From Iocasia fonsfrigidae (GTDB lineage: Bacteria; Bacillota; Halanaerobiia; Halanaerobiales; DTU029): a DNA stretch of 32,000 nucleotides. Made by a program: the position numbers and the translations under genes. The notes under the pieces were generated by a model, which had not been told where the DNA came from, searched no databases, and saw nothing but the letters and a program-made list of their open reading frames with translations. Shown piece after piece: positions 2,791 to 31,889 of this stretch (the stretch's first letter is position 1; every line of letters begins with the position of its first letter). The stretch covers positions 444,137 to 476,136 of the forward strand of contig NZ_CP046640.1 in assembly GCF_017751145.1 (NCBI RefSeq), written 5' to 3'.

Positions 2791-3819
2791 ATGCTAGGGC
2801 TTTCCAAAAAAATAGGGATAGATCTAGGTACAGCGAATATTTTAGTATATGAAAAAGGAAAGGGTATTGTCGTACAAGAACCATCGGTTGTAGCGATGGA
2901 TACTGAAACCAATAAAGTCGTTGCTGTGGGGACAGAAGCCAGGAGGATGCTCGGGAGGACACCAGGGAATATTGTGGCTATAAGGCCTTTAAAGGATGGG
3001 GTTATAGCTGATTTTGATGTTACAGAATTAATGTTAAAACACTTCATTACTGCTGCCGTAAAGAGGCGCAGACTCTTTAAACCAATTGTGATGGTTTGTA
3101 TACCAGTTGGTATTACAGGTGTTGAAAAAAGGGCTGTTATTGAATCAGCTATGCAGGTAGGGGCCAGAAAGACCTTTTTAATCGAAGAACCGCTGGCAGC
3201 AGCCATTGGTGCTGGCCTGCCGATTGAAGAACCACGGGGTAGTATGGTCATAGATATTGGTGGTGGCACATCAGAGATAGCAGTTATTTCCCTGGGAGGA
3301 ATAGTTGTCAGTGAGTCCCTGAGAATTGGCGGTGACCGCTTTGATGAGGCTGTTATCCGTTATATTAGGGATAAGTATAACCTTATTATTGGGGATAAGA
3401 CTGCTGAAGAGATTAAAACAACGATCGGGTCAGCCTTTGTAGAAGAAAGCAGGGAATTTGAAGTAAGAGGCAGGAGTGTCCTTACTGGTCTTCCTAAAAA
3501 TTTGAATATTACGTCAGAGGAGACTGTAGAGGCTTTTCAAGAGCCAATAAATGCTATTATAGCAGCTGTAACCCGTGTTCTGGAACAGACTCCACCTGAA
3601 TTATCATCAGATATTATGGACAGGGGAATTATTATGACAGGTGGAGGCTCTTTATTGAATAATTTGACCAAATTAATTAGTCAGAAAACTGAGATTCCTG
3701 TATTTTTAGCTGATGACCCTTTGACTTGTGTTGCAGAGGGTACTGGACATGCCCTGGAAGAAATAGATAATTTAGCAGATGCACTGACATCCAATGATGG
3801 AGTTGGATATAGGCGGTAA
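2791..3819 (+). CDS. mreB: Rod-shape-determining actin homologue MreB/Mbl
   Basis: [14 protein letters not shown]...PSVVA...[14 protein letters not shown]...[14 protein letters not shown]...[19 protein letters not shown]...[11 protein letters not shown]...IMTGGGSLL are actin-fold phosphate/adenosine motifs typical of MreB. I prefer the ATG at 2791, with a GAGGGGA RBS 10 nt upstream, over the TTG at 2782. It follows spoIIID, as mbl does in Bacillus. Confidence 0.93.
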
Positions 3820-10029: not shown

Positions 10030-10626
10030 ATGAAGGAATATTTAAAAAAGATAAGGGATTTAAAATTACCTACATCTGAAGAAGAACAAGCCTTATGGTT
10101 TAGATATAAAAATGAGAATGAGCAGGAGGCCCGCCAGGAGTTGATTAGCTATTACCAGCCTCTGGTCTTTAAACTTGTCCAGCAGTTTAAGGCTGATCGG
10201 GGAGTATTTATGGACCTGATCCAGGAGGGCAATCTAGGGTTGATAGATGCTGTTGATTCCTATAGACCAGGATTTAATACCAGGTTTTCTACCTTTGCTG
10301 TTTATCATATCAGGGGTAGAATTATTGATTACCTTAATAAAGGTAGTAGGGCCAGAAAATTCCCTGTTATGGGAGATATCCTTCCTGAGAAACTGGAGGA
10401 AACTGTAGAAAGGTCAATACTGGCTGACAGGGTTAAAGAGCTTGTCAAAGGCTTACCCTCTAAGGAAAGACAGGTTATTAACAAGCGTTTCCTGGATAGT
10501 AAAAAGGCAGAACTGGCTGCTGCAGAAATGGGAATAAGCCTGTCTTACCTTTACCGCCTACAGAAAAAAGCCGTTAGAAGGCTTCGGGGTAAACTAGCTA
10601 CTTTTATTCATCAGTGGAATAAGTAA
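10030..10626 (+). CDS. Small sigma-70-family sigma factor (group-3/FliA-SigB-SigF-like regions 2 and 4, very short linker)
   Basis: Region 2 reads LISYYQPLVFKLVQQF...DLIQEGNLGLIDAVDSYRPGFNTRFSTFAVYHIRGRIIDYL. Region 4 HTH reads LPSKERQVINKRFLDSKKAELAAAEMGISLSYLYRLQKKAVRRLR. An RBS AAGGAG lies 13 nt after the tamB stop, so the gene is probably co-transcribed with tamB. Confidence 0.85.
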   Translation: MKEYLKKIRDLKLPTSEEEQALWFRYKNENEQEARQELISYYQPLVFKLVQQFKADRGVFMDLIQEGNLGLIDAVDSYRPGFNTRFSTFAVYHIRGRIIDYLNKGSRARKFPVMGDILPEKLEETVERSILADRVKELVKGLPSKERQVINKRFLDSKKAELAAAEMGISLSYLYRLQKKAVRRLRGKLATFIHQWNK

Positions 10627-20253: not shown

Positions 20254-20328
20254 AAATAATAAAAATATGCAGGAGTTTTTATATTGCTTATTGAATTAAA
20301 GAAGATAGATATTAGAAGGAGGGGGAAA

Positions 20329-29597: not shown

Positions 29598-29635
29598 TAC
29601 TGGATAATACTAACAGATAATTTTTATCTTTTTTT

Positions 29636-29664
29636 GCAGGACTTTAGGAGGAAAAGTGGAATAT
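29636..29664 (+). promoter_or_regulatory. Sigma-H-type promoter-like motif, distal copy upstream of ompM
   Basis: GCAGGActt, 11 nt, then gtgGAATAT. AGGA (29638-29641) and GAAT (29659-29662) are 17 nt apart. Confidence 0.4.
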
Positions 29665-29754
29665 ATATAGACAGAATCAGATAAAACACTTATAATTATA
29701 GGTGTTGTATTGGAAAAAGGATTTTTAAAAAATATTAAAAAACTTTATTTCCTT

Positions 29755-29783
29755 GCAGGAGTTTTAGGATTTGTGTTGAATAT
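29755..29783 (+). promoter_or_regulatory. Sigma-H-type promoter-like motif, proximal copy upstream of ompM
   Basis: GCAGGAgtt, 11 nt, then gttGAATAT(AAT). AGGA (29757-29760) and GAAT (29778-29781) are 17 nt apart. This copy is the best fit to RnAGGAwWW-N11-RnnGAATww. Confidence 0.45.
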
Positions 29784-29867
29784 AATACAGTGATAGTCGA
29801 TTTTTACTTATATTGTTGATAGTTAATTACTTAATTTTTTTGTGTAAAATTTAATTATGTCAAAAGT

Positions 29868-30038
29868 CTTATCATCTCAGGCTAAACATGTGTGGAGAGG
29901 AGGTGCCCCCCGATTCACAGAGCTGTGAGAGATGATAGGGTTCTATATAATAGTTCATTGACAACTGAAGGAGAACGAGATGAGGAAACTAGGAGACTCA
30001 TTTTCTGTTCCCTTAGGTGAGAAATGAACTGGTAGAAC
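29868..30038 (+). promoter_or_regulatory. Structured 5' leader candidate of ompM (two long hairpins)
   Basis: In hairpin 1, CTTATCATCTC (29868-29878) pairs with GAGATGATAGG (29929-39), with an inner CACAG-AG-CTGTG. In hairpin 2, GTTCTA / TAGAAC and AGTTCATT (29952-59) / AATGAACT (30023-30) form the outer stems. The inner helix GAGATGAG / CTCATTTT needs two G-U pairs, so it forms only as + strand RNA. Confidence 0.35.
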
Positions 30039-30080
30039 TATTTTATTTTAAACCTAAAAAATCAAGGGGGAATTATTGTA

Positions 30081-31889
30081 ATGAAGAGAATTGTTATTGC
30101 TGCATTTTTAGTATTGGCTTTAACTGCTTCTGCCTTTGCCGCTTCTTTCGCAGATGTGCCTTCAAGTCACTGGGCATACGGAGCAGTTAACAAACTTGTT
30201 GCTTCCGGTATTCTTTCCGGTTATCCAGATGGGACTTTTAAAGGCCAGAATAACCTGAGCCGTTATGAAATCGCTGTTGTTGTTGCCCGTGTTCTCGACC
30301 AGATTGAAGCAGAACAGGCTGCTTTAGCTGATGAAATTGCTGACGCTGATAGCCTGAGTGTTGGTCAAGCACAACAGGTTAACGAAATTGTTAAGGCTAT
30401 TGTTGCCAAAAATACTGGTGAAGAATTAAGTAATGAACAGGCTAACGAAGTTCGTAGTATAGTTCAGGCCCTGACCTTTGAATTCAGGCCAGAACTGAAA
30501 GAACTCGGTGCTGCTGTTGATGCCTTAGCAGTAGATGTTGACGAATTAGACTCCAGGGTAGCTGCTTTAGAAGCAGAACCAAGAGACAATGTAAGTTTCT
30601 CAGGTACTGTAGATACTATCTTTGAAACAGCTAACTATGGTGATAATCCTTATGCAACTATGCTTGTATGGGCTGATGATGATGCCTTAGATGAATTAGA
30701 TGATGATAATGCAATTACAGGTGTTGATGATGGTGATATGCCAGCTGCCAAGGCCTTTTATCAGGAAATTGGTTTAGATATAGCAGCTAATGTTGGTGAT
30801 GTTAATTTTGATTTAGCAATAGATACTCTTAAAAATCTATTTAGTGAAACTGATACTGTAGTAGATGGTATTAAACTTGGTGAAACTGCAGACAGTGATG
30901 CTTTTGAAATGGATACAGCATTACTAACCATTTCTAAAGATGATTATACCTTTAAAGCGGGTAGTTTTGAGGATTATGATGTTGACCCTTACTTTATTGA
31001 TGATGAAGATATGGAAGGTATCGAAATAACTGCCCCACTTGCTGGTATTGATTTCAAGGCCTTTGCCGTAGGTGATGAAGATGATGATGCTGATGAGTTT
31101 GAAAAAGATTACTATGGTGTAACTGCTACAGCAGATATGGATATCTTCAAATTAATCGGTAAGTTATATCATGCACGTCTTGAAAGTGAAGATGCGGTAA
31201 CTGATTTTGCTATAGCAGCTGAAGCTGATGTTACTGATGAGCTGACTATGGGTGGAGAGGTTGTTTTCAATACAAATGACGGTAGTAGTGATGAAAATGA
31301 TACACTCTTTAACTTAAATGGTAGCTATATCCTTAGTGATGTAGTAACATTGCGCGGTCTATTTGAAACAGTTGGTGAAGACTTCAATTCTACTGATACT
31401 GTCTTATCTGACCTGGAAGAAGATAACAACTATGACAAATATAATGTAGGTGCAGACTTTGCCTTGAATGCTAACAATACTGTTACAGCTGACTATACTT
31501 TAGTAGATGCTGATAAAGACGAAAATAAAAACAAATTCGAAGTTGGCTTAGAAAATACTACTGGTAAATTCACTAATCATGCATCCGTTGAATTTACCCA
31601 AAATGATGACTATGATGAAAATGGCGGAGAAGATGTAACACTCCTGACCTTAGGTACAAAGTATGCTATGTCTGATGCAACTACCATTGCTGCTGACTTA
31701 GTAAACAAATCAGCTGATGCAGCTGACTTAAGCTATACCTATCTGGTAGGAAGTATTGACCATAAACTATCAGATAACATAAGCTGGATTAATGAAGTTC
31801 AGTTAATCAATGGTGAAATAGATATACTTGGTAATACAGAAGATGCTGAAGGTAATTCCTTCAAATCTCAATTATCTGTAAGCTTCTAA
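30081..31889 (+). CDS. ompM: SLH-domain outer-membrane porin (OmpM/Mep45-type OM-peptidoglycan tether)
   Basis: A signal peptide (ALTASAFA) is followed by an SLH domain FADVPSSHWAYGAVNKLVASGILSGYPDGTFKGQNNLSRYEIAVVVARVL. A coiled-coil linker comes next, then an alternating-strand barrel region of about 400 aa ending in the beta-signal KSQLSVSF. The protein is extremely D/E-rich. A strong RBS AAGGGGGAA is present. Confidence 0.85.
   Translation: MKRIVIAAFLVLALTASAFAASFADVPSSHWAYGAVNKLVASGILSGYPDGTFKGQNNLSRYEIAVVVARVLDQIEAEQAALADEIADADSLSVGQAQQVNEIVKAIVAKNTGEELSNEQANEVRSIVQALTFEFRPELKELGAAVDALAVDVDELDSRVAALEAEPRDNVSFSGTVDTIFETANYGDNPYATMLVWADDDALDELDDDNAITGVDDGDMPAAKAFYQEIGLDIAANVGDVNFDLAIDTLKNLFSETDTVVDGIKLGETADSDAFEMDTALLTISKDDYTFKAGSFEDYDVDPYFIDDEDMEGIEITAPLAGIDFKAFAVGDEDDDADEFEKDYYGVTATADMDIFKLIGKLYHARLESEDAVTDFAIAAEADVTDELTMGGEVVFNTNDGSSDENDTLFNLNGSYILSDVVTLRGLFETVGEDFNSTDTVLSDLEEDNNYDKYNVGADFALNANNTVTADYTLVDADKDENKNKFEVGLENTTGKFTNHASVEFTQNDDYDENGGEDVTLLTLGTKYAMSDATTIAADLVNKSADAADLSYTYLVGSIDHKLSDNISWINEVQLINGEIDILGNTEDAEGNSFKSQLSVSF

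Follow-up and report, generated by a model that had tools for sequence, protein, structure and literature searches.

Probable SigH-type promoters upstream of ompM, mbl and a lipid A operon in Iocasia fonsfrigidae, and a conserved structured leader of ompM

The DNA considered here, called the window below, is a stretch of 32,000 nt from the genome of Iocasia fonsfrigidae (Bacillota; Halanaerobiia; Halanaerobiales), corresponding to positions 444,137 to 476,136 of the forward strand of contig NZ_CP046640.1 (assembly GCF_017751145.1). Coordinates refer to the window unless they are said to be those of the genome. At its left end, spoIIID (TIGR02844) is followed by a gene of the mbl/mreB family (2791-3819, + strand, 342 aa; PF06723 MreB_Mbl, E = 3.5e-146), and at its right end lies an ompM-type gene (30081-31889, + strand) for a 602-aa protein with an N-terminal SLH domain (PF00395, residues 22-63) and a presumed barrel, homologous to SLH-domain proteins from Halocella and Halanaerobiales. 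The cluster context consists of outer-membrane genes (TamB, BamA, Skp-like proteins, LptF/G) together with a small sigma factor, and the window also contains a lipid A operon beginning with lpxC. An earlier reading of these letters without database searches, the sequence-only reading, had already named the genes at both ends, mreB/mbl and ompM, and these names proved right. A repeated motif, TGCAGGA-N17-GAATATA, stands before both genes. Its three copies very probably represent genuine promoters of the familiar sigma-H type. Together with a fourth site upstream of lpxC, they are likely to belong to the Firmicute sigma-H class and to be read by the SigH orthologue of the genome.

The three copies of TGCAGGA-N17-GAATATA are exact, intergenic and on the + strand (2596-2626, 29635-29665 and 29754-29784), and the gap between AGGA and GAAT, read directly from the sequence, is exactly 17 nt in each. 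The sequence-only reading was precise in this observation, with coordinates off by at most 1 nt. The mbl copy (-35 TGCAGGA at 2596-2602, -10 GAATATA at 2620-2626) has a position weight matrix (PWM) score of 21.9 and a predicted transcription start site (TSS) at about 2630-2634. The other two stand in tandem before ompM: a distal promoter P1 at 29635-29665 (score 19.4, predicted TSS about 29670) and a proximal promoter P2 at 29754-29784 (27.9-28.1, predicted TSS about 29790), the latter ranking first by PWM score among all sites of the genome. A fourth site, overlooked earlier, has the form TGCAGGA-N18-GAAT with a score of 26.0 and lies at 20268-20296 (+ strand), directly 5′ of the lpxC-fabZ-lpxA... 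lipid A operon. The Firmicute SigH consensus has been given as RNAGGAWWW and RNNGAATWW separated by 11/12 nt (PMC8510167), equivalent to 17-18 nt between AGGA and GAAT, and the likeness to sigma-H promoters noted in the sequence-only reading does fit this published form. All four sites carry G-C-AGGA in the -35 element, in agreement with its R and AGGA, and their AGGA-GAAT gaps are 17, 17, 17 and 18 nt. GAAT is followed by AT, AT, AT and TA and preceded by the consensus R in three of the four sites, the mbl site having a C. The triplets after AGGA (GAA, CTT, GTT and GTT) show one soft mismatch to WWW per site.

Whether such copies could arise by chance depends on the word that is counted. The bare pattern AGGA-N17-GAAT occurs three times in the window against an expectation of 2.2, and 38 of 100 shuffled sequences contain it at least three times. 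The 14-base word, with up to two mismatches allowed, gives four matches (three exact and one with two mismatches) against 0.47 expected, a number that none of 100 shuffles reached. In the window the extended word is above chance, the bare one is not.

The motif was also counted across the complete 3.93 Mb genome, window included, of which about 13% is intergenic. GCAGGA-Nx-GAAT matches 50 times at x = 17, compared with 6-23 times at any other spacer; 43 of the 50 are intergenic and nearly all lie 40-300 nt 5′ of a co-oriented gene. The full 14-mer occurs seven times, at x = 17 only. With the pattern RnAGGAnWW-Nx-RnnGAAT, intergenic matches number 67 at x = 11 and 20 at x = 12 compared with 3-7 at every other spacer. 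PWM scores of at least 18 were obtained for 118 intergenic sites at spacer 17, for 19 at spacer 18 and for 0-4 at all remaining spacers, and at a score of at least 20 there are 20 sites with spacer 18 against 0-4 at other spacers. Altogether, 139 strong intergenic sites (score at least 18, spacer 17 or 18) are found genome-wide, 128 of them with a co-oriented gene start within 400 nt, as compared with 43% of random intergenic positions and strands. The motif is hence enriched upstream of gene starts, and only at the 17-18 nt spacing, so that the notion of a word no more common upstream of genes than elsewhere falls and the motif stands.

The profile derived from these sites reads tGCAGGAwTTT ... 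T-R-n-n-GAATwwT, with R at position -2 in about 116 of 131 sites, wTTT after AGGA and R enriched three nt before GAAT. About one third of the sites have the tGCAGGA extension while the remainder have a(A/G)(A/G)AGGA. The genes behind the top-scoring sites include ftsA, dnaG (upstream of sigA), mraZ, EF-G, HU, yajC, accB, a CheY-like regulator and an LCP transferase, the identities of ftsA, dnaG, EF-G and mraZ being confirmed by NCBIfam; many more encode LacI-type regulators, recognised from their N-terminal sequences. The motif would roughly define a regulon of some 140 promoters of cell division, replication, envelope and sugar-utilisation genes. Three classic genes of sporulation entry have weaker variants at the expected position: AAGAAGGA-N17-GAAAT before spoIIAA, TTGCAGGA-N17-CTAAT before spoVS and GCAGGT-N17-GAAG before spo0A. 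Two other sites in the window may be mentioned. One, on the minus strand at 2146-2180 upstream of cstA, is a weaker SigH-like site, AGGA-N17-GAAC, scoring 15.9. The other (+ strand, 2531-2564, score 22.3) lies within the 3′ end of spoIIID; it has a spacer of 16 nt, which shows no genome-wide enrichment, and was therefore left out of the count.

The sites in the window are kept before mbl, lpxC and ompM across the Halanaerobiales, and before ompM also in spore-forming Negativicutes, in keeping with the conservation that the sequence-only reading had named as a check. Upstream of mbl, TGCAGGA-N17-GAAT is found about 35 nt 5′ of the start codon in the scorable relatives of the same family (one with a variant -10) and in several relatives from other families, the boxes being kept while the spacer sequence has diverged. 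This promoter reaches well beyond the order: among 80 spoIIID loci across the Firmicutes, mbl lies directly downstream in 63, and 39 of these have a SigH-type site within 260 nt, with fewer than one expected by chance. The lpxC site, about 25 nt before the start, is kept in most relatives of the same family and in some others, its spacer alternating between 17 and 18 nt from one relative to the next. Upstream of ompM, a high-scoring proximal site occurs in 19 of 30 homologous loci. The 19 come from several Halanaerobiales families, and the distance to the start is 230-330 nt in 18 and 489 nt in the remaining outlier.

The genome encodes a true SigH (genome 3292585-3293178, minus strand), which scores 333.6 bits on the TIGR02859 equivalog against a cut-off of 294.8. 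SigH defined in this way is present in 24 of 26 Halanaerobiales genomes and in all of the Negativicutes (10/10) and monoderm genomes (5/5) tested. RNA polymerase carrying this factor would read all four sites of the window. One promoter would serve mbl, through a leader that now holds a mobile element, and one the lipid A operon, while two in tandem would feed ompM through a long, conserved and structured leader, possibly with a SigA-type promoter between them. The motif itself, its enrichment at particular spacings, its placement and orientation relative to genes, its conservation, the presence of sigH and the likeness to validated SigH promoters of other organisms are observed, while initiation by the SigH holoenzyme in vivo, the exact TSS positions and the timing of firing are inferred.

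Two further sigma factors of the same genome have to be considered. The first is a SigH-like paralogue, here called SigH2 (genome 567095-567718), which might read the motif alone or beside SigH. It scores about 200 bits on TIGR02859, under the cut-off, is 46% identical to SigH, has a very similar predicted recognition helix (KAVDNALQRARKKIE vs KSVDNALQRVKRKLE) and occurs in nearly all of 25 Halanaerobiales relatives, and one could imagine that the two -35 classes of the genome reflect two readers. However, the same motif precedes ompM and mbl in genomes that have just one SigH-family gene. This is the case for the mbl motif in the monoderms Thermosediminibacter, Fervidicola, Tepidanaerobacter, Thermincola and Thermovorax, and for the ompM motif in Pelosinus and Dendrosporobacter. 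SigH2 was not found in the tested Negativicutes or monoderms, where two Sporomusa genomes give a weaker second match of 111-130 bits. Moreover, sites of the GC class and the remaining ones are alike at all other positions, and the idea that GCAGGA and AAGAAGGA are signatures of SigH and SigH2, respectively, was rejected as no further position differs between the subclasses. A part for SigH2 is considered very unlikely. The second is the small sigma factor encoded within the outer-membrane cluster (10030-10626), which would act as a dedicated envelope sigma and which the sequence-only reading had offered as a possible reader with a similar motif. Its position between tamB and bamA is kept in both diderm lineages (KIAC18_001977 in Sporomusa), full-length orthologues at 123-132 bits exist in Sporomusa and Pelosinus, and its own cluster has four copies of the motif. 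It is nevertheless not SigH-like (21.4 bits to TIGR02859; it belongs to the generic TIGR02937), about 140 promoters across the genome carry the motif, those of ftsA, dnaG and sugar regulators among them, and three of the monoderms with the mbl motif were tested and have no full-length orthologue, the best match being 49 bits over region 2 only. That this factor reads the sites appears extremely unlikely. Since the monoderms possess neither the paralogue nor a full-length cluster sigma, SigH is left as the only candidate sigma common to all motif-bearing genomes.

It could also be argued that the sites are SigA promoters with an unusual -35 element, or that they are conserved because a different DNA-binding protein recognises them. 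The -10 region GAATATAAT includes TATAAT, TTGCAG is similar to TTGACA, and the ompM promoter of Mitsuokella at the equivalent place, TTGCAG-N17-TGcTATAAT, is of the SigA type. In addition, the supplementary table of a study on Sporomusa marks both SigA and SigH motifs at the ompM and mbl TSSs (PMC12456013). Yet TTGCAG and TATAAT are 22 nt apart in the window sites, far beyond the 16-18 nt range of SigA, the enrichment is seen only at SigH spacing, and the flanks conserved across about 140 sites (wTTT after AGGA, T-R-n-n before GAAT) fit SigH rather than TTGACA/TATAAT. We regard this explanation as very unlikely. Several observations nonetheless weigh against reading by SigH, among them the embedded TATAAT and the double marking in the Sporomusa table just mentioned. 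The mbl site is off consensus at two soft positions (AGGAGAA, and a C in place of R in RnnGAAT). P1 scores lowest of the sites, and only nine of 19 relatives' loci possess a distal one. In this genome, the promoters of spoVG and of sigH itself are of the SigA type. Since the PWM was built from this genome's own spacer-17 sites, the spacer-17 counts are partly circular, which does not apply to the spacer-18 enrichment, the counts obtained with consensus patterns or the conservation between genomes. Finally, no lineage that has lost sigH was found among the genomes tested, so that a joint loss of motif and sigH is absent as a contrast, and Mitsuokella and Phascolarctobacterium encode SigH but have no SigH-type site before ompM.

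With SigH as the likely reader, the tandem arrangement before ompM deserves comment. The sequence-only reading had noted TTTAGGA between the half-sites of both copies and had suggested a duplicated promoter, a direct repeat of about 35 bp. TTTAGGA is indeed present in both, but 1 nt out of register; the longest stretch shared by P1 and P2 is 17 nt at 82%, around TGCAGGA and the -10 region, and in register the spacers are identical at 6 of 17 positions, which are consensus positions. Similarity is thus confined to what the promoter class demands, and a duplication is not borne out. A second, distal site lies 76-190 nt further upstream in nine of the 19 orthologous loci, from several families, which indicates that the layout is old and not the product of a recent duplication. 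Between P1 and P2 there is a SigA-like promoter candidate (29668-29696, + strand; TAGACA-17-TATAAT, 11/12). SigA-like sites upstream of the proximal SigH site are found in few relatives only and their conservation is weak. The genome has two more OmpM paralogues (genome 838598-840484 and 1859532-1861241), with identities of 78% full-length and 80% over the N-terminal part, and for neither of them did the scan reveal a SigH-type site within 800 nt. One such site does occur at genome 1858072, 1.4 kb upstream of the third paralogue.

Transcripts from the SigH promoters of ompM would have a leader of about 290 nt, of which the last ~185 nt are highly conserved across families. The conserved part (29862-30044, + strand) comprises two domains in an alignment of 19 loci, for which RNAalifold gives 44 pairs, 14 of them with compensatory changes; the minimum free energy of the single sequence has a z-score of -5.27. 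It is present in a single copy in the genome. A block at about 29898-29905, AGGAGGTG, is complementary to 16S rRNA and followed by CCCCCC (29906-29911). Most relatives' leaders have AGAAAGGAGGTG, complementary to the 3′ end of 16S rRNA, and then CCCCC(C), the version in the window being GAGAGGAGGTG. Further downstream, at 29980-30001, lies an invariant hairpin of 22 nt, ATGAGGAAACnnGGnnACTCAT. A 15-codon mini open reading frame pointed out earlier in this region is not conserved in length. Searches against Rfam gave no match at gathering level in the window, none with E<=1 upstream of ompM, and none for the hairpin in five Negativicutes loci.

Protein homology with OmpM is a poor route to the Negativicutes, as it returned mostly Halanaerobiales and Synergistota-like matches, and the hairpin itself was used as an exact probe instead. 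It matched 95 times in 596 Gb of genome sequence, against a chance expectation of about 17. Of these, 80 loci were examined, and in 50 an SLH/OmpM gene starts 65-147 nt downstream. They belong to Halanaerobiales and to Negativicutes, the latter represented by Sporomusa, Pelosinus, Dendrosporobacter, Mitsuokella, Phascolarctobacterium and metagenome-assembled genomes (MAGs) of Selenomonadales. A SigH-type site within 420 nt upstream of the hairpin is present on the forward strand in 39 of these 50 loci and on the reverse strand in one. In three loci of Mitsuokella and two of Phascolarctobacterium the hairpin is kept and the SigH orthologue scores 355-374 bits, with no SigH-type site. For Mitsuokella ompM, the promoter sequence given above suggests a switch of promoter class. 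In Negativicutes, extra copies of the hairpin precede proteins of 285-297 aa that have a signal peptide and end in ...VNF, which suggests outer-membrane proteins of the barrel type; no Pfam family was matched by them. One MAG of Limnochordia also carries the hairpin, but with no SLH gene detected in the 700 nt that follow.

These findings can be accommodated by a tentative reading, possible in our opinion but held with somewhat less than even confidence, in which the SigH-type promoter and the leader with the hairpin ATGAGGAAACnnGGnnACTCAT form an ancestral expression module for major outer-membrane proteins of diderm Firmicutes. Promoter and leader would have been coupled before the lineages split, and the leader would be a previously undescribed, lineage-wide element acting post-transcriptionally, either as an mRNA stabiliser or as a docking site for a regulator. 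The same reading takes in the AGAAAGGAGGTG...CCCCC block, carried by the leaders of both Halanaerobiales and Limnochordia, and the Limnochordia hairpin, which would precede a gene resembling those of outer-membrane proteins. The idea of a stabiliser, by analogy with STAB-SD or the E. coli ompA leader, derives from two observations, the complementarity to 16S rRNA and the extremely high level of the ompM transcript in Sporomusa. Of the two elements, the conserved ompM leader is a more novel lead than the promoters.

Neither a SigA-like promoter nor a terminator was found in the gap between spoIIID and mbl. An element of 122 nt (2636-2757, + strand) resembling a miniature inverted-repeat transposable element (MITE) lies in the mbl leader just past the predicted TSS, and the promoter is outside the element. 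It is flanked by a 5-bp target-site duplication, TTAGA, at 2631-2635 and 2758-2762, and its termini are the inverted repeats GTGTGTGTTCGAAAAG ... CTTTTCGAACAGRCTC. Near-full-length members of its family number at least 18 in this genome, 88-96% identical and with unrelated flanks. Owing to this insertion the promoter is separated from the ATG by 161 nt as against about 35 nt in relatives. As RNA the element would form a long 5′ hairpin (z = -5.46). The possibility that the mbl promoter was carried by the repeat was rejected because no relation was seen among the flanks of 14 other copies, and an identity with a 124-bp repeat elsewhere in the window was rejected as there is no BLAST match. A further copy of the MITE-like element lies directly after a SigH-type site at genome 779586.

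How does this compare with known SigH systems? In B. subtilis, promoters of spoVG, ftsAZ (P2) and the sigA operon (P3) are sigma-H examples, and about 50 such promoters exist there compared with about 140 here. We know of no outer-membrane sigma-H targets in that organism. Consensus and spacing are the same as in I. fonsfrigidae, and spoVG differs, being of the SigA type here. Both ftsA and dnaG-sigA are reportedly sigma-H targets in B. subtilis, and the presence of ftsA, dnaG-sigA and fusA in the regulon described here parallels known SigH targets. The AGGA-N17-GAAT architecture is shared with Clostridioides difficile, whose SigH promoters were validated by the transcriptome of a sigH mutant and TSS mapping and include those of ftsZ, minC, fusA1, spo0A, spoIIAA and spoVS (PMC7438776). 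The mreB gene of that species has, beside a SigA promoter, a second one of SigF or SigH type, the text leaving unsaid which of the two (PMC7438776). In contrast to I. fonsfrigidae, C. difficile is a monoderm and has no outer-membrane genes, and its -35 elements mostly read A(A/G)AGGA where the envelope promoters here consistently have the tGCAGGA extension.

The closest parallel is Sporomusa sphaeroides KIAC, likewise a spore-forming diderm Firmicute, though one of the Negativicutes and not of the Halanaerobiia. Differential RNA sequencing in this organism is described as yielding 322 TSSs with a SigH motif (-35 AGGA, -10 GAAT, spacers of 17-18 nt) and a regulon enriched in cell-division and envelope genes, and the same study reports FIMO matches to the motif in Acetohalobium, which belongs to the Halanaerobiales (PMC12456013). 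Motif and spacers are those seen here, and the regulon is similarly large and rich in envelope and division genes. According to Data S2 of that paper, the primary TSSs with an assigned SigH motif include those of KIAC18_001945, the top-expressed SLH/OmpM gene, of the spoIIID-adjacent mbl (001994), of tamB (001978) and of genes 001942-001944, including lptD (001943) (PMC12456013). The ompM and mbl assignments stand in this supplementary table only and are not discussed in the main text as far as it was accessible (PMC12456013). The arrangement in I. fonsfrigidae differs by its two tandem ompM sites, by the lpxC site and by tamB, upstream of which the window scan found no SigH-type site.

The sequence-only reading had proposed that a sigma-H motif before ompM and mbl would tie outer-membrane remodelling to entry into sporulation. 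This link is not supported. The regulon, extending from ftsA, dnaG, mraZ, EF-G and HU to yajC, accB and sugar regulators, has a wide reach and a mostly housekeeping character; monoderm spore-formers have the mbl promoter too, and SigH is kept in the non-sporulating diderms Mitsuokella and Phascolarctobacterium. Taken together, these three points connect the envelope genes to SigH as a general second sigma factor that would co-drive the major ones, and not to sporulation entry, in line with the broad second sigma reported for Sporomusa (PMC12456013). The SigH sites are thus very probably a solid but ordinary signal, a known promoter type with no special outer-membrane-sporulation link. Their value lies in assigning SigH as a transcriptional input to ompM, the lipid A operon and mbl in Halanaerobiales. 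As ompM is the main outer-membrane tether and porin gene and appears to receive the same input in Negativicutes, the arrangement is likely old. It should be useful for expressing, depleting or reasoning on outer-membrane genes in diderm Firmicutes, and it informs, and tempers, the debate on how the outer membrane relates to sporulation in these bacteria.

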